This document shows positions 997 through 36,026 of a DNA stretch of 37,127 nt, piece by piece (the stretch's first letter is position 1; the number at the start of each line of letters is the position of its first letter). Below the pieces are notes generated by a model. The model did not search any database. It saw only the letters and a program-made list of their open reading frames with translations, and was not told the origin of the DNA. Source of the stretch: a virus (taxonomy: Duplodnaviria; Heunggongvirae; Uroviricota; Caudoviricetes); the IMG/VR virus record IMGVR_UViG_2923339551_000001; one strand, written 5' to 3'. A program made the translations under genes and the position numbers.

Positions 997-1195
997 TACG
1001 TATCCTTATACCTGAAATCTTCGCAAGTATGCCTGGCCGCGAGATTATGGCACACTTGTCCGGTTAACTCTCGTCTCATACAGGTAACACAAACGTGAAA
1101 ATCCTTGTTGAGGAAAATAATAGTGGTTTAATCTTTTGATATAAAAGGATTTATATCATCGTATGTCCACGCAATGACCACATTTTCGAGTTACA

Positions 1196-1233
1196 GATGA
1201 CAAAACGCCCGTTTTCACGGGCGTTTTGTCATC
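1196..1233. terminator. Perfect 16-bp-stem hairpin downstream of the 1254-2147 gene
   Basis: gatgacaaaacgcccg / ttttca / cgggcgttttgtcatc read directly; no clean U-tract on either side, so function as a terminator is uncertain. Confidence 0.4.
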
Positions 1234-1253
1234 TGATATTGGGGAGGTATATA

Positions 1254-2147
1254 CTATTTCCAGTTACAAGCATCTTGAAGCGGTTTTAGTGCATTTGACA
1301 GGCCGCTTAAATTGAAAGTTGCACTTACAGGGCTTTCATTATAAGGGGTTATTTTTGTGTACATTTTATGTGAGTTGGCAAGTTTTCTTATGAAATCAAT
1401 ATCATTACCTTTATAAAAAACAGCCTTTGTATCTGTAGATATTAGCCAGTTTCTTTCAACTGCTTTCTGTTTATCAAGACGATACAGCATGCTGGTTTGT
1501 TCAAGGCCTAAATATACATCCCAACTAAGAAATACTTCGGTTTTCTTTTCTCGGCAAGCTATAAACAGAGTGGGAGTAACAGCTTCTCCAAATGGAGTTC
1601 TGATATAATCATCACTTTCTAACGATAAAATTATATTTTTCGAATCATCAATTGGCGATGTAGTAATGGACGTGTGCCATTTTCCTGCATCTGTGGCTTT
1701 CTCTAATTGTGATTCAGATTGAACAGCTTCATCCTGTGGGAATAGTTTATCGTAGCAGTTTAGTCTGGCTTCTTTATCATTTTCTGCTCGGCATTTAGAT
1801 ATTTCAGAAAGATTTGGTTGCTGAGCCTTTGTTGTTACTAGCTTTTCCGTTTTAGATTTTGAGTTTACAGATGGAGTAAATGTTGGAGAAAAAAAACGAT
1901 CATAACAAGATAAACGTTTGTCATCATCTTTCTCATCAGGGCATTGATCCCTGCTTTCAAATTTTTCAGCAACTTTCGTTCGAGTCGGTTGTATTGACTT
2001 ATCGTAACAAGAAAGTCTGTCTTTATTGTTTTCTATCGCTCGGCACTGGAGCACTGCATTGAAATTCTTATGTTCAGTTGCTGCATGAACAGGCAGTACA
2101 CTAATTGATATAAATAATGCACCTATAGAAAAAATCATATTTTTCAT
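1254..2147 (-). CDS. Hypothetical secreted protein with three Cys-containing repeats
   Basis: 297-aa ORF, AT-rich; N-terminal signal-peptide-like segment (MKNMIFSIGALFISISVLPVHA); three repeats of C-x8-9-RLxCYD(K/R)xF; family not recognised. Confidence 0.6.
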   Translation of the reverse strand: MKNMIFSIGALFISISVLPVHAATEHKNFNAVLQCRAIENNKDRLSCYDKSIQPTRTKVAEKFESRDQCPDEKDDDKRLSCYDRFFSPTFTPSVNSKSKTEKLVTTKAQQPNLSEISKCRAENDKEARLNCYDKLFPQDEAVQSESQLEKATDAGKWHTSITTSPIDDSKNIILSLESDDYIRTPFGEAVTPTLFIACREKKTEVFLSWDVYLGLEQTSMLYRLDKQKAVERNWLISTDTKAVFYKGNDIDFIRKLANSHKMYTKITPYNESPVSATFNLSGLSNALKPLQDACNWK

Positions 2148-2151
2148 TTTA

Positions 2152-2484
2152 TTATCCCTTTGGTTTAGTAAGAAATACTAAAATTCCGATAATGATATCG
2201 CCAATAACCCATAAGCCTCCAATGACAATTAAACCTAAGCCCGTACCAATAACTGCCCCAGCTTTTTCGGCATCGGATGTGGTATTGTTTATTATTTCAT
2301 CAGCGCCTCCTAGTCCAACTAAAAGTGTATAGATCATAAAAATATTAAAAAATATAAAAGTCCATTTAATGAGTTTTCCAAAAAATGAACGCTTAAGTTT
2401 TTTCAGTTGTTTACCACAAGCAGGGCAACATAATGCTGAATCGCTTACCTCTTTCTGGCATTCAGGACATTTGATTAATGTCAT
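2152..2484 (-). CDS. Hypothetical zinc-ribbon membrane protein
   Basis: 110-aa ORF; N-terminal CPEC-x10-CCPAC zinc-ribbon motif followed by two hydrophobic helices; 4 nt upstream of the secreted-protein gene, likely one operon. Confidence 0.6.
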   Translation of the reverse strand: MTLIKCPECQKEVSDSALCCPACGKQLKKLKRSFFGKLIKWTFIFFNIFMIYTLLVGLGGADEIINNTTSDAEKAGAVIGTGLGLIVIGGLWVIGDIIIGILVFLTKPKG

Positions 2485-2683
2485 GTAATCCGTCTCCTTT
2501 GGAACACTACAAGCTGAAATTTGTTACAAAACATTTTGATTTTATCAGATTTTTTGTTGTTGATAAGTGCCAATTGATTAACTGGTTTAGAGTGATACAT
2601 ATAGAAAGGTAGAGCAGTGTCAGTGTGTGATGAAATACCCACAGTTTCATGGGATTTTTGCATTTAGAGCTGTGAGATAGGGT

Positions 2684-2790
2684 AATGTAGTTCAGTTAAG
2701 GAATTGAGGTTCGATAGCTCGAACCTCGCGCAGAGGCAAGATGACTGAAAGCCTGATTCCTTAATGCACAAAAATGAGTCTCTATTCATA
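2684..2790. repeat. Left terminal inverted repeat of the cassette
   Basis: Reverse-complements to 4056-4166 at roughly 93-95% identity (hand alignment); contains nested internal palindromes ttaaggaat/attccttaa and gaggttcga-tagc-tcgaacctc. Confidence 0.6.
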
Positions 2791-2996
2791 GAAGTGTATT
2801 AACTAATCGACATCGCCTGTTGTGTGGATTGCCCCCATAAACACGGGCTTTCTGCTTGTTTAGTAGTCACAGTATGTCTAAGCTTTCTCGTTAGCTTCTT
2901 CTGAAATGACCTGCACTACAAGCCCGCGCTTCCCATACACCACATGCAGTGCAAACTGACGCATCGGTTTTTCAATCAGCTAACTAAAAGTTTGGC

Positions 2997-3830
2997 TCAC
3001 CAAACGATGCGCCCATCTGATGTATGTCCTTTGGCTTGTTTTACTATACTGAAATCTACTATTCCATATGGATAAATTTTATTTACTTTAAACACAAGAT
3101 TAGCAACTAAATGCATTCTCGATTTAACTGTTTCTGTGCGCAAAGCGATATTTGAGGCCCCTTTTATTTTAGCGCTAGGATAAATGAGACCATCAACATC
3201 AGGGTATTTATCAAGAAGAAGACGGCAAAAAATTCTTGAGTAAATATAATTTACCTCATGGGCATTGATACTATTAAGCAACTCAGCAGAAAGGGCATCC
3301 ATATACAAATATGATAGCAAAGCACGGATGTCGTCCTTACCAATTCTGCTAATGATGCCACGAATTTCATTAAACACTTCAATTGAAATTGTATTTACAC
3401 CGTGATACACATTAAAGACCTCACCGATAGCAAAACATCGCATTCCAGACTCTGAATTTTCCGGCATCTTAAAGTGAGCTATGTGAACATAATCCCCTTC
3501 TTTTGCATTAATTTCGGCTAAAGCTGTTCCGATACTATAAGCGCCATAGAAGATAGCTTGTCCATCATCATTCATTCGGCCTATTTTACATTTTTCTGGT
3601 GGAGGGGGATATATTTCACTGATGTTATTATATCCGCATTCATTTGGGCACTTTCGCGCTCTAAAAATTGGTCTGTCATAACCGAACTTGAAATTAACAC
3701 CGCCATATGATTGAAGATACCATCTAAGTAATCTCTCTACTTTCTCTGGCTTTATAGTAGTTAGTAATTCTTTACGAAACAGATCAAGACTATTTAACTC
3801 AATTACCTTTAGCTTATTATTCATGACCAT
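2997..3830 (-). CDS. RES-domain protein (putative NAD+-targeting toxin), no adjacent antitoxin gene
   Basis: 277-aa ORF, AT-rich; motifs FRAR, GRMNDDGQAIFYGAYSIGTALAEI and GLIYPSAKIKGASNIAL match the Arg/Glu/Ser signature regions of the RES family as I recall them; no Xre-like partner ORF in the cassette. Confidence 0.55.
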   Translation of the reverse strand: MVMNNKLKVIELNSLDLFRKELLTTIKPEKVERLLRWYLQSYGGVNFKFGYDRPIFRARKCPNECGYNNISEIYPPPPEKCKIGRMNDDGQAIFYGAYSIGTALAEINAKEGDYVHIAHFKMPENSESGMRCFAIGEVFNVYHGVNTISIEVFNEIRGIISRIGKDDIRALLSYLYMDALSAELLNSINAHEVNYIYSRIFCRLLLDKYPDVDGLIYPSAKIKGASNIALRTETVKSRMHLVANLVFKVNKIYPYGIVDFSIVKQAKGHTSDGRIVW

Positions 3831-4055
3831 CCCTATAATTTTAGAGTTTCGTTATTCACTTTACACTTCATGCTGACCAGTTACCGCCACTGAGTCTACT
3901 GCACAGGCTAACAATTTATGGTTATTTTTCAATGTACAAGTACAAAAAATCAAGGCGTTCTAGAACTAGAAGTCGTCAGTTGACCGCGAAAGGTAAGAGG
4001 CGGCATTCAGACAATGCGGGGGATACACCGCCAATGTCGAGTAGTTAAGCGCTTT

Positions 4056-4166
4056 TATGAATAGAGACTCATCTTGGGCATTAAGGAATCAGGCTTTCGG
4101 TCATCTTGCCTCTGCGCGAGGTTCGGGCTATCGAACCTCAATTCCTTAACTAACTGAACGGCATTG
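4056..4166. repeat. Right terminal inverted repeat of the cassette
   Basis: Reverse complement matches 2684-2790; followed by the 12-bp direct repeat. Confidence 0.6.
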
Positions 4167-4239
4167 GTGAGATAGGGTGCCTTATCGACCTTACCCTGGC
4201 AACCGATTGACGGGGGATTGCTCCCCCGTCGCGGTTTCC

Positions 4240-4380
4240 TTACTGCTTACACTGTAAGAACGCCGCAAACTCCGCTCCCCAGAAGCTCATCCGTATTTCG
4301 CACAGCGAACCGTGCAGCATCCAGATGATGAGGATTGCCGTCACGCAGAACGTGATGGCCGTAAGCGATTTTTGCGACAT
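4240..4380 (-). CDS. hok: Hok/Gef-family type I toxin (small membrane peptide)
   Basis: 46-aa ORF not in the track (under 60 aa); hand translation MSQKSLTAITFCVTAILIIWMLHGSLCEIRMSFWGAEFAAFLQCKQ; SLCEIR and E-x-AAF motifs and the TM segment fit Hok/Gef; AAGGAG Shine-Dalgarno 8 nt upstream. Confidence 0.6.
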   Translation of the reverse strand: MSQKSLTAITFCVTAILIIWMLHGSLCEIRMSFWGAEFAAFLQCKQ

Positions 4381-4570
4381 AGCGCTTGCTCCTTTTTCAG
4401 GGAGGCGCTAACCTATCACTTGCTAAGGTTAGACGGTTAGGGCCTCGGTTAAACAGAAATGTTTTCCGGGGCCTTTCCACATCTGGCCTTCGGGTATTCC
4501 CTCCGACCATCAGCCGAAAGGCACCCGCGCGTAATCTATCGCTTTTTTGTTACTCCGGCAATTCTGCCTG

Positions 4571-4831
4571 TTAATTCTGAGATAAAGGCAAACTCATCTG
4601 ATTGTTTCCCCTGTGTGAAGCTGGCAACTCATGCCACGGGATACCTTCTGAAGAGTGAACGCCGGGGGCGTGTTTCGATGTGAATTTATGGAAAGCTTCC
4701 AGTGTTGAGAAACTTATGCCGCATTCCAGGTTGTTACACTGGTAATATTTTTTCCGTACGGTGTTTGAATCATTTTCCGAACGACTGGTGCGGATACGGG
4801 CAGATGCGCCACAAAGCGGACAACGGAACAT
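4571..4831 (-). CDS. ogr: Ogr/Delta-family zinc-finger late transcription activator
   Basis: 86-aa ORF; CPLC-x19-CNNLEC zinc finger and N-terminal similarity to P2 Ogr; position next to D. Confidence 0.8.
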   Translation of the reverse strand: MFRCPLCGASARIRTSRSENDSNTVRKKYYQCNNLECGISFSTLEAFHKFTSKHAPGVHSSEGIPWHELPASHRGNNQMSLPLSQN

Positions 4832-4873
4832 AGCGACCTCCCTTAACGTGGTGCTGCTGCTATTCTAAGTTGC

Positions 4874-5983
4874 TCACTCTGTTTCTGCTATCCATTCCGG
4901 GATTTTTGCTTCAAGCTCAAGCTGCGTGGTAAAGCCACTGTTATCAATGGTGTGCTCGGCTTTCGCAATAATCCAGTCCTGATTATCAATCTCGCTTTTA
5001 AATCCTGTTACCGTGCCATGCATTTCGGGGTAGAGTTCTGCGCGTCCACGAGCCAGTGTGATGGAGAATGATGCGGCTCCGCGTTGTAGCTGCTGCCACT
5101 TTGCCGCCGCTGCGCGTCTTGCTGCCAGCTCGTTCTGATAAGTCTTGCGTAACACAAACACATTGCCATCCGCGCCTTCCATATAGTCACCTTCACGGCT
5201 GCTGCTTTTCTCCTTTTTGGGTTTTGGCGGTTTACGGCGTTTCACGCTGACTTTTTTCTTTTTCCCGTAATTAAGATCAAGCCAGTAGGCGCGTACCCCC
5301 GTATACGCCTCGCGGTCAGCAATACGGAATTGATGGCGATCGCCGCTGCTGCGTGTAATGGCGAACGAGGGCAACGGCTGGCCCTGTGCGTTCACGCCAC
5401 CACCTGGCATGATGAATAACAGATTACCGCTTTTTACCGTGGTGATTGCGCCCAGCATTTCCGCCATGCGCGTAAGGAAAGACATGTCGCTTTCTTCGGT
5501 CTGGTCGGCGTGGTCGATTTCGATATCCATCAGCATTTCGCTGATTTGCGGTTTCAGGCCGTACCGATGAGCGATGGCGGATACCACGCGCTCAACGGTC
5601 ACATCATGCCAGGATACTTCACGTTTAACGTTAAATTCATCCCGAAAATCTGCGCTTCTGGCTGAAACAGTCAGCCTGTCCGGCGGTCCTTCGTGAGCGA
5701 TTTCATCAACAATGTAAGTGCCTTTTTCTGTCAGCGGTTCTCCTTTCCAGCCAATGAGAACCGTCAGGCGCGCGCCCCGTGGCGGTAGCTGCAACTGACC
5801 ATCCGCATCATCCAGCGTGATGGTGAGCTGGTCCGCTTCAAATCCCCGGTTGTCGGTCAGTGACAGGTTCATCAGGCGCTCTGCCACGCCGGACAGCGTT
5901 TTACCCTCCGCGAAAATATCCAAATCCGGCATTTTCACGGGGTCTGTGCCCTGACTGAGCAATTGCATGGTGGTATCGGTCAT
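4874..5983 (-). CDS. D: Tail protein D (late control gene D family)
   Basis: Track ORF 4874-6115; I place the start at the internal ATG at 5983 (MTDTTMQLLSQG) because of a GGGAGGG Shine-Dalgarno 6 nt upstream; gpD-like sequence throughout. Confidence 0.8.
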   Translation of the reverse strand: MTDTTMQLLSQGTDPVKMPDLDIFAEGKTLSGVAERLMNLSLTDNRGFEADQLTITLDDADGQLQLPPRGARLTVLIGWKGEPLTEKGTYIVDEIAHEGPPDRLTVSARSADFRDEFNVKREVSWHDVTVERVVSAIAHRYGLKPQISEMLMDIEIDHADQTEESDMSFLTRMAEMLGAITTVKSGNLLFIMPGGGVNAQGQPLPSFAITRSSGDRHQFRIADREAYTGVRAYWLDLNYGKKKKVSVKRRKPPKPKKEKSSSREGDYMEGADGNVFVLRKTYQNELAARRAAAAKWQQLQRGAASFSITLARGRAELYPEMHGTVTGFKSEIDNQDWIIAKAEHTIDNSGFTTQLELEAKIPEWIAETE

Positions 5984-6140
5984 CTGTTCCCTCCCTGTGC
6001 GGCATGGTCGCATGTGCGTGCGGAAGGGGTTACTGCTTTTTGTTGTCGCCGAATCGGGAGAACGGCGCAGGGGTGAGATTACGCGCGTGGTGGGTGATGA
6101 TTGTTGCCGAATCATTTAACGGATACAAGGGGCTGAAGCT
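5984..6140. promoter_or_regulatory. Divergent intergenic region between D and FI (putative late promoters)
   Basis: 157 bp between divergent starts; contains direct repeats TTGT(C/T)GCCGAATC at about 6042 and 6098; no clean TGT-N12-ACA late-promoter motif identified by eye. Confidence 0.3.
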
Positions 6141-11886: not shown

Positions 11887-12450
11887 ATGCTGAATAATAG
11901 AGATATGAATATTAATGAACTTAAAGACTGTATTCACTATGAAGTAATCGGTAGCGAGCGTCCTTTCTCCTGGCGAAAGGCAATTGTTCGCGCAATAAAA
12001 CATAGAAGAGTTCGTTATTTATTTTGGTGGCGCATAGCCAAATACCTTTTTGATAAAGGCGGATACTGTCGGAAGATTGCGGGGAAAATAGAACGTTTCA
12101 TTCTTGATAAATATAATGTAACAGTCCCTTTAACTGTAAATATAGGGAAAGGCTTTGATATTTCTTATCTCAACAGTGTTGTTATCGGTCACAAAGTAAC
12201 CATCGGTGAAAATTGTTCAATAAAACCAGGGGTAACTATTGGGCTACGTGGTGATTTTAATGATATGGATATTGTTATAGGACATAATGTGACCATTGGT
12301 TGTAATGCCACCATTCTTGGTGGCAAAGTGCGTATAGGAAACAATGTCACAATAGGTGCTCATGCATTGGTATTGCATGATATTCCTGATGATTCAACAT
12401 TCATCACTAAATTTCAGTCTGAAGTTATCTGCTCGTCCTCCCGCACATAA
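11887..12450 (+). CDS. Hexapeptide-repeat (left-handed beta-helix) acetyltransferase, WcaB/CysE-like; cargo gene at the G/FI (Z/fun) hotspot
   Basis: 187 aa, AT-rich; repeated [LIV]GxxxxIG hexapeptide motifs ([55 protein letters not shown]); 3' end overlaps the 3' end of G by about 37 nt. Confidence 0.7.
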
Positions 12451-27835: not shown

Positions 27836-28147
27836 TTATTCAGGAAATAACGCCCTGATATTTCCGGCCATCTGACTGGTTATCTGTGCGGTTGGTACTG
27901 GCTGTGACAGGGGGCGTTCTGTCCTGGTTTGTGTCACTGATAACGCCTCATCGTCAGCCCATGCTGCCAGTCGGTAAGCCTCTGCCGGATTCATTTTCAG
28001 AAGCGCCAGCCCAGCCAGAAAAGCCACGCGTTGGCCGTTTTTACGGGCTTCTGGTGTAAGGCTGTCCAGCCAGGCGCATGCTTCGCCTTCGTTCTTGACG
28101 GCGGCGGGCTTCAGATAGAAACTTATTCGTCTGGTTGGTGTCGTCAT
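27836..28147 (-). CDS. parR: ParR/StbB-like partition adaptor
   Basis: Track ORF 27836-28282 overlaps parM; start placed at the internal Met (MTTPTRRISFYLKP..., about 103 aa); resembles plasmid R1 ParR (ISFYLKP / LDSLTPEAR / AFLAGLAL); immediately downstream of parM. Confidence 0.6.
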   Translation of the reverse strand: MTTPTRRISFYLKPAAVKNEGEACAWLDSLTPEARKNGQRVAFLAGLALLKMNPAEAYRLAAWADDEALSVTQTRTERPLSQPVPTAQITSQMAGNIRALFPE

Positions 28148-28151
28148 TGGT

Positions 28152-29111
28152 TTACTCCTTGTCCATTGCGTACAGCCCATTAACCAGAGCAAACTGTGGC
28201 ACCCCGTCCGCGATGAAAGTCGCATTAACTCCGCAGGCTTCGCGGATAGCGGGTGCCACAATCTCCGCCCCGCCACCGACAACCATCACCCGCCCGTAAC
28301 CCGAAAAACCCGCCAGCGCGCGGATCACGCGTTGTTTCAGTGTTTCTTCCTTTTCACGAATAACCGCCATCAGGCTGGCGTAATGCGCGTCATTGTGGAT
28401 GTGCTGGCGCAGCCAGGCTTCATCATGGCGATGTTCGATAATGGTATTGGCGATGTGGTGACTGGTACGCATACCGTTAGTGGCCATCACCGACAGTACT
28501 GCATCGGCCATCAGGGAAACGCCTACGTGTGGATCGCAAAACACCTGGCTGATACCTGCCAGTTGTCCCTGAACCTTTGCCACATCCAGCGTGGTTCCAC
28601 CTAAATCCACAATCAGCAGGGATTCAAACGGACTCATGTCAGCCAGTGCTTTAAAGCCAGCCGGAATGGATTCAGGCATAACCCGTACATTACGGATAGT
28701 GAATGCTTCGCCGTTCTGGTATTCCACCGGGCGCATAACGTTTGCTTTTTTGCGGTTGATGTTGGCCATGTCCGGCTGTGCGTTTGTGTCGAAATACTCG
28801 CTCAGTGGCAGGGTGACAACCACATCCACCTCCTGTGGCGTGATGCCTGATTTGACCAGCGCGTGATGAATGGCAATGACATTCACATCGCTGTACTGGT
28901 ATTGCGTGTCGGTCGTCTGGACAAAGCGATCGCTGACCGGATCAAAACCATAGCGCACGCCATCAAGCATGTAGTTCGCGGGCTGCGTGCCACCGAACGG
29001 CGCAGACCATTCCGACTTGAAGCTGTTCGGGCTGATGGCGTTGCGGCGTTCGCCGTTCTCAGTCCATGCCAGCTTGATGTTGGTGGAGCCGTCGTCGATA
29101 CAAATTTTCAT
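28152..29111 (-). CDS. parM: ParM/StbA-like actin-family partition ATPase
   Basis: 319 aa; N-terminal MKICIDDGSTNIKLAW, LIVDLGGTTLDVA and VVGGGA motifs closely match plasmid R1 ParM as I recall it. Confidence 0.8.
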   Translation of the reverse strand: MKICIDDGSTNIKLAWTENGERRNAISPNSFKSEWSAPFGGTQPANYMLDGVRYGFDPVSDRFVQTTDTQYQYSDVNVIAIHHALVKSGITPQEVDVVVTLPLSEYFDTNAQPDMANINRKKANVMRPVEYQNGEAFTIRNVRVMPESIPAGFKALADMSPFESLLIVDLGGTTLDVAKVQGQLAGISQVFCDPHVGVSLMADAVLSVMATNGMRTSHHIANTIIEHRHDEAWLRQHIHNDAHYASLMAVIREKEETLKQRVIRALAGFSGYGRVMVVGGGAEIVAPAIREACGVNATFIADGVPQFALVNGLYAMDKE

Positions 29112-32016: not shown

Positions 32017-32382
32017 TTACTTCGTCATGCCATTCAGGGTGTCGCGGCAGACTGTAGCCAGCCGCTGAATTTCCAGCACGGTGTCTTCTGTGTCGGCATG
32101 GCGATGTGTGATGCGGATGCTGTCGGCAATCACATCGACGATTGCAGAGGATGGGCGCTGGTAAATGCCAATAACGGACGGGGTGCCACCTTCAATGCGG
32201 TAAAGCCTGTAATTTCCCTCATGGCTGTCGATCACGTAGCGACCATCAATAACAATTTTTCCGTCAGCGAGCTGCGGTACAGGCAGGGATTTCAGGTACA
32301 TGTCATAACGATCACGCACGCGAGCGGCAAGATCACGTTCTGTGTTGAGCAGGTATTCAAGAAAGTCGTTGGCGAGAATCAT
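32017..32382 (-). CDS. Hypothetical early-operon protein
   Basis: 121-aa ORF immediately upstream of A on the same strand. Confidence 0.5.
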   Translation of the reverse strand: MILANDFLEYLLNTERDLAARVRDRYDMYLKSLPVPQLADGKIVIDGRYVIDSHEGNYRLYRIEGGTPSVIGIYQRPSSAIVDVIADSIRITHRHADTEDTVLEIQRLATVCRDTLNGMTK

Positions 32383-32454
32383 TGCGGCAATCCTCTTGTT
32401 ACAGATGTGCGAAGGCCTCCCGCCGCAAGGTGCAGGAAAGGCCCGGAACAGGAA

Positions 32455-32685
32455 TTAATGGAGTTTGTTTTGCTGCTGGATGAGCTGTTGAAGCTCGTGC
32501 AGATCATCCGCCAGATAGCTGAAAACAGAGGCGGAATAAATGTTTGATAGTGCGTGGCTGCGTTCATGCAACATATTGATGTGCATGATTTGCGCGACGC
32601 GTGATGCGCGGGAAAGTCTGCGGTTGATTTCAGTCTGGATGTGACGACGCTCCGCGATAGCGCGGTGTGGTTTGCGGTTTGCCAT
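32455..32685 (-). CDS. Hypothetical small early-operon protein
   Basis: 76-aa ORF with protein-like composition, unlike the overlapping 205-aa frame. Confidence 0.4.
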   Translation of the reverse strand: MANRKPHRAIAERRHIQTEINRRLSRASRVAQIMHINMLHERSHALSNIYSASVFSYLADDLHELQQLIQQQNKLH

Positions 32686-33007
32686 GGTGTGGCCCCTTGT
32701 GTAGTAAGTTGTGAAAACTCACCATCCAGAGCTGCGAAACTGTGGGTGGCGAGACGTACGAGGTTCGCAGTACCGGCTACACAAGAACCCGGCCCGACCG
32801 AAGTCGGCCCCGTACGCCCCGCCATAATTCTGACGCGAAAAAAACGTGGCAATACAGTACGCACAAAAAAACCGCTGGCGCGGTTGTGCGCTTGTGTAGT
32901 CAGCAGGCTGCGAAACCCGGCACCCGTTTTGTGAGGTGCAGCGGAAATGTAACCTGACTGATTGCGGCATGGCAAGCGGTTTTTTTGTGTGTGCATGTTC
33001 TGGTTTC

Positions 33008-35592: not shown

Positions 35593-35720
35593 TGTGGTAA
35601 TCTCCCTAATTCGTTCGAATGGCTCAAAATGGCTTATATCGGCTTATTTGAGTGTTTTTATGTTTGTGCCCGATGTGGCATGTTTCGATGGAGGATATGC
35701 CCGATATGGCATCTTTGTCA
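35593..35720. promoter_or_regulatory. Lysis/lysogeny switch region with two ~20-bp direct repeats (candidate C operators)
   Basis: tgcccgatgtggcatgtttcg (35667-35687) and tgcccgatatggcatctttg (35698-35717) read directly; the second overlaps the C start codon. Confidence 0.45.
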
Positions 35721-36026
35721 AGCATGGGTGAAAAATTTCGCCTGATTCGTGAAGCAGAAGGTATGACCCGCCAGGAGTTTGCGGATTGTGTTGGGCTGCC
35801 TTATGGGACGGTAACTAACTATGAGGTGAGGGGGAAGCAAGTAACAGAGGGTGCCTTACTTAAGGTTACGAAACACCCTAAATTTAAGAAGTATGCTTAT
35901 TGGTTATCAACAGATGAAACGATGCCGGAGGTCGGGCAAATTTCTCCGGCTCTCTCTCTTGATGGTTCCTGCAATTCGGAGGGAGATCGCGTTTCAACCG
36001 AAACAATCCAAAAATTATCCCGCTGA
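35706..36026 (+). CDS. C: Immunity repressor C
   Basis: Track ORF 35652-36026; start placed at the ATG at 35706 with a GGAGGA Shine-Dalgarno; similarity to P2 C (GVPYGT..YE...GALLK....P.F.KY..W..T....PE.GQI.PAL). Confidence 0.8.
   Translation: MASLSSMGEKFRLIREAEGMTRQEFADCVGLPYGTVTNYEVRGKQVTEGALLKVTKHPKFKKYAYWLSTDETMPEVGQISPALSLDGSCNSEGDRVSTETIQKLSR

Follow-up and report, generated by a model that had tools for sequence, protein, structure and literature searches.

What does a RES-domain toxin gene do when it stands alone? In the classical case, a RES toxin has an Xre antitoxin as its partner (PMC6436930; PMC9503650), and a preliminary description of the IMG/VR virus record IMGVR_UViG_2923339551_000001 had pointed to a RES-like gene with no visible partner inside a cassette bounded by inverted repeats, suggesting an orphan or degenerate toxin, a toxin neutralised in trans or a defence effector. 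We followed this gene up in the whole stretch of 37,127 nucleotides (the window; feature coordinates are collected in Table 1). The window is a segment of E. coli chromosome in which flk occupies positions 1-996 and the remainder is a P2-family prophage, and the RES gene lies within this P88-like prophage (Xuanwuvirus, P2 family), next to flk. On balance, the gene probably encodes a catalytically intact, stand-alone RES NAD+ phosphorylase or NADase that is carried as cargo both by the prophage and by a mobile insertion cassette (MIC) of the type of insertion sequence (IS) IS4, and that would serve the lysogen as an abortive-infection defence.

The assignment to the RES proteins was borne out: the product matched Pfam PF08808 with an E-value of 5e-12 and 46.6 bits (cut-off 23.2); no RES model of NCBIfam matched it. 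The length of 277 aa first given for it holds for the longest open reading frame (ORF), but not for the probable protein: the ATG at 3824, the third codon of that frame, is preceded at a distance of 5 nt by the Shine-Dalgarno sequence AGGGA, is the position at which both PGAP and all homologues begin the protein, and is probably the true start, which gives 275 aa. Across 27 sequences, down to 53% identity, residues R57, R59, R85, Y95, E106, N108, S219 and N227 were invariant, and among these R57/R59, R85, Y95, E106 and S219 are the putative catalytic residues. Loss of the catalytic Arg, Glu and Ser, a concern voiced in the preliminary description, was checked by alignment, and R85, E106 and S219 were kept in all 27 sequences. 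The order and spacing of R59-R85-Y95-E106-S219 parallel those of R27-R47-Y58-E69-S126 in MbcT, a toxin for which R27, R47 and Y58 are needed for toxicity and R27 for NAD+ phosphorolysis (PMC6436930).

The predicted structure has the RES/ADP-ribosyltransferase (ART) fold. Searches of PDB sequences with the single sequence (phmmer) and with a profile (hmmsearch) found no RES toxin, and the link to the RES toxin structures was made by fold comparison alone, with Foldseek E-values of only 0.015-0.065; in a BFVD fold search, the sole match was a split N-terminal fragment from phage P88_4B11. In the model, two helices near the N-terminus form a hairpin (aa 12-42) and a helical insert occupies aa about 137-208; its segment 76-92, the loop bearing R85, was of low confidence and is presumably mobile; the counterpart of this loop in MbcT is the loop bearing R47 (PMC6436930). 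Both the RES fold and the active-site residues are intact.

A role outside toxin-antitoxin modules is suggested by the aRES proteins of a January 2026 preprint, stand-alone RES proteins of E. coli, Klebsiella and Enterobacter that protect E. coli against phages through NAD+ depletion upon infection, with formation of ADP-ribose-1''-phosphate (ADPR-1P) and growth arrest, and whose defence is abolished by active-site mutations (bioRxiv 10.64898/2026.01.28.702374). Because these proteins stand alone, the premise of the preliminary description that a RES protein normally needs an Xre partner is outdated (bioRxiv 10.64898/2026.01.28.702374). Using three aRES sequences from Table S4 of that preprint, BLASTP gave 43% identity over 46 aa of the PPP-GRMN-FYGA-AE segment (E = 7e-9), and hhalign of the cassette RES family against aRES gave 96.3% probability and an E-value of 1.6e-9 over 156 columns, spanning residues 49-223 of the cassette RES and 174-338 of aRES, with R85, E106 and S219 aligned to aRES R215, E236 and S334. 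By its homology to these characterised stand-alone proteins, defence is the most likely function of the cassette RES and the best supported of the options raised for it. The protein most probably works like aRES, yet it falls outside the published definition, in which a length of 300-600 aa and the presence of both RES and PF18870 are required (Osterman et al., bioRxiv 10.64898/2026.01.28.702374).

The gene proved to be one of a large family. Forty-six close homologues, down to 53% identity, were all about 275 aa long with RES as their only Pfam domain, and were found in Escherichia, Enterobacter, Lelliottia, Leclercia, Citrobacter, Buttiauxella and Salmonella as well as in Aeromonas, Alkalimonas, Rheinheimera, Neptunomonas and others; the family also occurs in Paraglaciecola and Erwinia, and the cluster of near-identical RES proteins has 258 members. 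Over 1.84 billion representatives, a profile search returned 2,177 clusters (50% identity) with E<=1e-3, of which 368 reached E<=1e-10. These clusters were mostly 265-330 aa in length and aligned from residue about 5-25 to the C-terminus, which shows that the N-terminal helical hairpin belongs to the family, and all of the distant relatives tested (10/10) carried PF08808 as the sole Pfam domain. The gene is under purifying selection, with dN/dS values of 0.08-0.19 in pairwise comparisons to five homologues. These data bear directly on the degenerate toxin first suggested, that is, a decaying, non-functional passenger tolerated as inactive or not expressed. Such a pseudo-toxin would fit with the lack of a clear promoter, the frameshifted RES gene in the deposited P88_4B11 sequence and the existence of a deletion derivative of the cassette (see below), but low dN/dS, invariant active-site residues, a near-identical cluster of this size and a full-length architecture conserved in hundreds of clusters contradict it and make it the least probable of the explanations that we weighed.

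How the gene came to lie in the prophage could be read from its surroundings. Relative to the empty site, the cassette is an insertion of 1484 bp bounded by inverted repeats with a core of 78 nt (96% complementarity) plus extensions (pairs I1, I2 and I6). The repeats of the preliminary description are real, although neither the IS4-type mobile cassette nor the P88-like prophage had been recognised there. The tips of both arms (~24 bp each) aligned with both IS4 ends of E. coli K-12, TAATGCCGATCAGTTAAGGATCAGT and TAATGCCAGTCAGTTAAGCAACTGA, and the ends AATGTAGTTCAGTTAAGG and CAATGCCGTTCAGTTA... fit the consensus -AATR--------WTW of the IS4 subgroup, whose members generate duplications of 10-13 bp and measure 1400-1650 bp (PMC2266710 Table 1). 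Inside its outer end, the left arm contains a hairpin with a 9-bp stem, GAGGTTCGA-TAGC-TCGAACCTC. The cassette is flanked by a target-site duplication of GTGAGATAGGGT, which is 12 bp long (11 bp if a T belongs to the element), and K-12 IS4 is flanked by a 12-bp duplication as well. In the complete genomes of E. coli C9 and AH21F008, the same prophage has the flanks joined at a single GTGAGATAGGGT. There is no transposase inside the cassette, the sole substantial ORF being RES. The cassette therefore has the anatomy of an IS4-type MIC, a class first described for IS231/MIC231 of the IS4 family (cited in PMC2266710), with RES as the passenger and with an identifiable empty site. Given the IS4-matching tips, the empty site and the target duplication, we dropped a reading of the arms as an invertible segment, an attachment site or a structured RNA.

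The arms and the 5' untranslated region (UTR) were also considered as the source of a cis-acting RNA, a type I or type III-like antitoxin, that would keep a toxin in check. Each arm of ~115 nt folds as a stable multi-stem structure (left arm, z = -3.4 and -3.1), and the Enterobacter copy keeps the 9-bp stem by G-U-compatible changes in the RES-sense direction. On the plus strand, however, the right arm is no more stably folded than shuffled sequence (z = -0.6), IS4 ends make up the outer portions of the arms, and an Rfam scan of the cassette (E<=5) returned nothing in the arms or the UTR; no tRNA or tmRNA genes were found. Moreover, no homologue of less than about 85% identity has the arms or the 5' region, so that the family cannot depend on them as a partner, which leaves a cis-encoded RNA antitoxin as a very improbable explanation.

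The distribution of the cassette was determined in 5,426 complete E. coli genomes. It was present in 65 of them, always at the same site, and a contiguous empty site was found in 142; the arms occurred only at the cassette site, only together with RES and in two copies per genome. A full-length IS4, a possible source of transposase for the cassette, was present in 2,479 of the genomes (46%). Elsewhere, searches with the arms hit only P88_4B11 among phages, four IMG/VR contigs, all with RES, and three metagenome contigs, all from the same prophage, and neither long inverted repeats nor IS4-like ends were found near the more distant RES homologues. In Enterobacter P2-like prophages, a RES gene of 88-91% identity follows ogr directly, with one copy of the same end before it: at this junction, the IS4-like end and arm lie 25 bp past the ogr stop codon (locus L015, 4649-4776; also L016, L019/L025 and L026), and the similarity to the window breaks off at 4166, within one base of the right cassette terminus. 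No second cassette end was found within 5 kb in the Enterobacter prophages, and 2795-2955 of the window has no counterpart at the Enterobacter loci. That this end is found at two distinct junctions suggests a second insertion. The Enterobacter locus looks like a decayed cassette at another junction.

A trace of loss was found as well. On the metagenome contig OLNN01001643.1 (L036, 2961-3046), the same prophage site has only a palindromic scar of 72 nt between the two copies of GTGAGATAGGGT; the region corresponds to window positions 2672-2727 joined to 4140-4179. RES was lost here by a deletion between the copies of a 9-bp direct repeat, TCGAACCTC, in the two arms, leaving a remnant that resembles a miniature inverted-repeat transposable element (MITE). 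The scar is probably real and not an artefact of the assembly path, since the k-mers across its junction do not occur in the full element, and it shows how the RES cassette can be lost again; none of the 5,426 complete E. coli genomes had it.

We then return to the missing partner. The absence of a partner ORF of at least 60 aa between the inverted repeats was confirmed, the largest ORFs besides RES being 50, 46, 43, 43, 41 and 41 aa; four of these six lie wholly inside the RES ORF in other frames, another overlaps RES at its 3' end, and the last is located in the left arm. The 5' region (3831..4051) contains no credible partner either, its largest ORF being 38 aa on the opposite strand. Across 12 distinct homologue contexts, no neighbour of RES was conserved. 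In E. coli and Erwinia, homologues lie on a MobA/TraD/PilS element; in Aeromonas on the guaA side, adjoining an IS; in Citrobacter in an e14-like region with SRAP, UmuDC and DinI; in Lelliottia convergent with an orphan Hcp cluster; in Leclercia in a prophage; in Pseudocitrobacter with an integrase; in Paraglaciecola with a group II intron remnant; and in Rheinheimera between FKBP and a TonB receptor. On the viral contig IMG/VR UViG_3300002464_000036 (1164-5862), a 72%-identical RES gene lies between a retron-type reverse transcriptase (PADLOC RT_V, E = 2e-161) plus DUF5677 and a YaaC-like gene, a locus that resembles a small defence cluster. Taken by vehicle, homologues were found on E. coli and Enterobacter P2-like prophages, on another prophage, on MobA-carrying elements and with integrases. 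For homologues of <=83% identity, the DNA similarity to the window stops at the ORF borders, with the sole exception of a 66-nt A/T-rich block upstream of the gene in Lelliottia; this block, at 3885-3950 in the window, is presumed to be a promoter or operator. The RES gene is thus autonomous and without any conserved partner.

The preliminary description had also suggested that the protein might be neutralised in trans. RES would then be an orphan type II toxin whose antitoxin is a host or prophage Xre-type protein or the C repressor, and would act as a prophage addiction or stabilisation module. Apart from the classical pairing of RES toxins with Xre proteins, this would be in line with the presence of an HTH_3 repressor in the prophage (35652-36026) and of a hok/sok addiction module next door. 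That repressor, C, was however the only HTH_3 protein among the scanned candidate small and regulatory ORFs of the prophage, and none of these ORFs carries a toxin-binding domain of the PF09722/Xre_MbcA_ParS_C type. As the family occurs in many genera next to unrelated neighbours and on unrelated elements, a dedicated partner would have to travel along unseen. The 142 empty-site genomes and the 72-nt scar show that RES is freely gained and lost in the same prophage, and E. coli tolerates stand-alone RES proteins (bioRxiv 10.64898/2026.01.28.702374). We consider an antitoxin acting in trans unlikely.

Table 1. Coordinates of the RES cassette, its parts and neighbouring features in the window.
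Feature	Position	Strand	Remarks
RES-domain gene	2997..3830	-	longest ORF 277 aa; probable true start ATG at 3824 (275 aa)
Non-coding 5' region of RES within cassette	3831..4051	-	A/T-rich block 3885-3950
3' non-coding part of cassette	2795..2996	-	terminator-like hairpin at 3005-2990, overlapping the RES stop codon
Left terminal inverted repeat	2684..2794	.	IS4-subgroup end in the outer ~24 bp, AATGTAGTTCAGTTAAGGAATTGA
Right terminal inverted repeat, upstream of RES	4052..4167	.	minus-strand outer end CAATGCCGTTCAGTTA(GTTA)AGGAATTGA
Target-site duplication, left copy	2672..2683	.	GTGAGATAGGGT; single copy in empty site
Target-site duplication, right copy	4168..4179	.	GTGAGATAGGGT; single copy in empty site
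hok-family toxin gene	4240..4380	-	PGAP 'Hok/Gef family protein'; outside cassette
sok-like antisense region	4367..4526	-	Rfam sok 43.6 bits, E = 6e-8, below gathering score 59
ogr/delta late activator	4571..4831	-	Pfam Ogr_Delta E = 1e-15; outside cassette
gpD (D)	4874..6115	-	413 aa from first ATG
VasI/TagO-like protein, 297 aa	within 1254-2484	-	PF11319 E = 1e-25, below TIGR03360 cut-off
Zinc-ribbon membrane protein, 110 aa	within 1254-2484	-	hydrophobic C-terminal half

The genes just downstream of RES suggested another role, namely that of an interbacterial or phage-benefit toxin, either a cargo effector of a contractile apparatus resembling a type VI secretion system (T6SS) or a host-takeover factor. 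NADase toxins are common as T6SS effectors, a VasI/TagO-like protein and a zinc-ribbon membrane protein are encoded immediately downstream of RES (Table 1), and the Lelliottia homologues adjoin an orphan Hcp cluster. The prophages with an empty site nevertheless retain the VasI-like pair without RES, which shows that the pair and RES are independent; the Hcp genes of Lelliottia are on the opposite strand, T6SS genes are absent from most other loci, no immunity gene was found, and the 275-aa protein has no secretion or adaptor domain. We therefore regard a role as interbacterial or phage-benefit toxin as quite unlikely. The VasI-like and zinc-ribbon genes are low-GC morons at the prophage end that are also present in empty-site prophages, and a T6SS-associated VasI in a phage is odd in itself. 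When RES and its two downstream neighbours were scanned with PADLOC, only Cas8b matches with E-values of about 0.01 were obtained, which were taken as chance.

The same prophage region is present in NC_049391, the genome of Escherichia virus P88_4B11 (Xuanwuvirus, Peduoviridae; 37,100 bp), where the gene order ogr, hok, RES cassette, zinc-ribbon protein, VasI-like protein and int places RES in the accessory region between ogr and attP. The G+C content of this region is 37%, versus 50-60% in the phage body. In the window, ogr and D are followed by FI, FII, E, T, U and the tail-fibre genes, and the right part contains the replication gene A and then cox, C and, at the right edge, int. The cassette was inserted some 60 nt past the hok stop codon and might thereby change the hok mRNA at its 3' end, a part of importance to fold-back inhibition in hok/sok systems. 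Further genes of the prophage deserve mention. The divergent starts of gpD and FI are 25 bp apart; gpD is annotated with 369 aa in strain C9 and, in two other strains, as a truncated 266-aa protein and a pseudogene, and the D/FI junction appears variable. An actin-like segregation ATPase of the ParM/StbA type (E = 2e-82) together with Plasmid_stab_B (27836-29111, minus strand) forms a plasmid-type partition module in an integrating P2-family phage. In the early region, a C4 antisense RNA (83 bits) and the adjoining Hfq-binding small RNA IsrK (64 bits; 32742-32939, minus strand) overlap an Ash-family ORF (32379-32996). A hexapeptide-repeat acetyltransferase gene (11887-12450, plus strand), likely a lysogenic-conversion moron, lies between gpU and the tail-fibre assembly gene where the local G+C content dips to 43-47%.

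Reading RES as a stand-alone defence enzyme, we propose the following course of events. The gene arrived in the ogr-attP region as the passenger of a non-autonomous IS4-type MIC of 1484 bp, which an IS4 transposase would have mobilised in trans. The lysogen would express the enzyme in a latent state, held presumably by the hairpin near the N-terminus (aa 12-42) and by the insert of helices (aa about 137-208); no other part of the protein is a candidate for such regulation. Infection by a heterologous phage would relieve this autoinhibition, and RES, if it acts like MbcT and aRES, would degrade NAD+ by phosphorolysis to nicotinamide and ADPR-1''-phosphate; the loss of NAD+ would then arrest growth of the infected cell. 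A further-reaching proposal, namely that the ~275-aa family is a previously unrecognised, minimal single-gene abortive-infection system, a 'mini-aRES' whose hairpin and insert would sense infection in place of PF18870, and a defence gene on a cassette that hops into phage genomes, we put forward tentatively, as possible rather than probable.

Several points weigh against this reading of the locus. A consensus scan upstream of RES gave no convincing match to a sigma-70 promoter, no trigger or sensor domain is evident in the 275-aa protein, and PADLOC (2023) has no model that matches it. With 275-277 aa, the protein is below the 300-aa minimum of aRES, and PF18870 gave no match at E<=1 in the cassette RES nor at E<=0.01 in 10 relatives (positive control, aRES of E. 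coli UC5, E = 3.6e-4); the function of aRES has been shown by experiment, that of the ~275-aa family is predicted. In P88_4B11, the RES gene is split into two coding sequences of 80 and 192 aa (NC_049391, 24164-24990; L017, 5165-5991), by either a frameshift or a sequencing error. Several homologue loci, for example that of Rheinheimera, lie among ordinary housekeeping genes, so that an enrichment in defence islands is anecdotal and not statistical. As regards the MIC, the arms run about 90 bp past the IS4-like tips and have no known parent: an IS with these ends was found neither in plasmids, GTDB representatives (0) and IMG/VR nor in metagenomes. For the complete MIC, one insertion event was seen, at an identical site in 65/65 genomes, and this single site leaves its current mobility unproven.

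Stand-alone RES defence and MICs are already known; new are a compact RES family of ~275 aa outside the aRES definition and a copy of it that is the passenger of an IS4-type MIC in a temperate phage genome. If the short family indeed defends, the aRES class would widen to proteins that were excluded by the published search (>=300 aa plus PF18870), and the question would be posed of how a 275-aa NAD+ phosphorylase without a separate sensor domain or antitoxin stays off and then switches on. Since NADases that produce ADPR-1P escape the phage counter-defence NARP1 (bioRxiv 10.64898/2026.01.28.702374), further enzymes of this kind are relevant to the arms race between phages and their hosts and to phage therapy directed at lysogens of E. 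coli and Enterobacter. The cassette with its clean empty site is a concrete example of a defence-like gene inserted into a temperate phage genome and, if the proposal is correct, IS-borne MICs would offer immune genes a way into the accessory regions of prophages.

Compared with known systems, the cassette RES differs from the toxins of RES-Xre modules (MbcT, ParT, NatT, P. putida Res and VPA0770), which have an upstream Xre/PF09722 antitoxin, and as this defining antitoxin is absent, it is not a RES-Xre module. The solved RES-Xre toxins are compact single-domain proteins of 144-250 aa, whereas the cassette RES has 275 aa and is about 100 aa larger through its N-terminal hairpin and helical insert. 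With aRES, it shares the FRAR...PPP...GRMN..G..FYGA.S...A.AE signature, a long insertion that separates the E motif from the S motif, and an occurrence as a single gene without a partner in defence and mobile regions of Enterobacteria; the two differ at the N-terminus, where aRES has a Zn-finger domain (PF18870) of ~170 aa and the cassette RES a helical hairpin of ~50 aa before the RES core. Like IS4 and MIC231 of Bacillus cereus, the cassette has IS-type terminal repeats, and like MIC231 it carries passenger DNA without a transposase. Its size of 1484 bp and duplication of 11-12 bp compare with 1426 bp and 12 bp for IS4, but its repeats of about 115 bp are longer than the IS4 ends of ~18-25 bp and contain hairpins not found in IS4, and MIC231 derives from IS231, which belongs to another IS4 subgroup in Firmicutes. 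The defence morons of the P2 family (old, tin, fun/Z; P2/P4 hotspots) are likewise low-GC accessory genes at a fixed variable position, and RES lies beside other accessory modules (hok/sok, the VasI-like pair), as is the case in P2-family moron regions; in Enterobacter P2-like prophages, an 88%-identical RES occupies the same ogr-proximal position. We take the classical P2 moron loci to differ in position and gene family from the RES site between ogr and attP. The mode of arrival also sets the cassette RES apart: it came by IS-type transposition and not through exchange at a hotspot.

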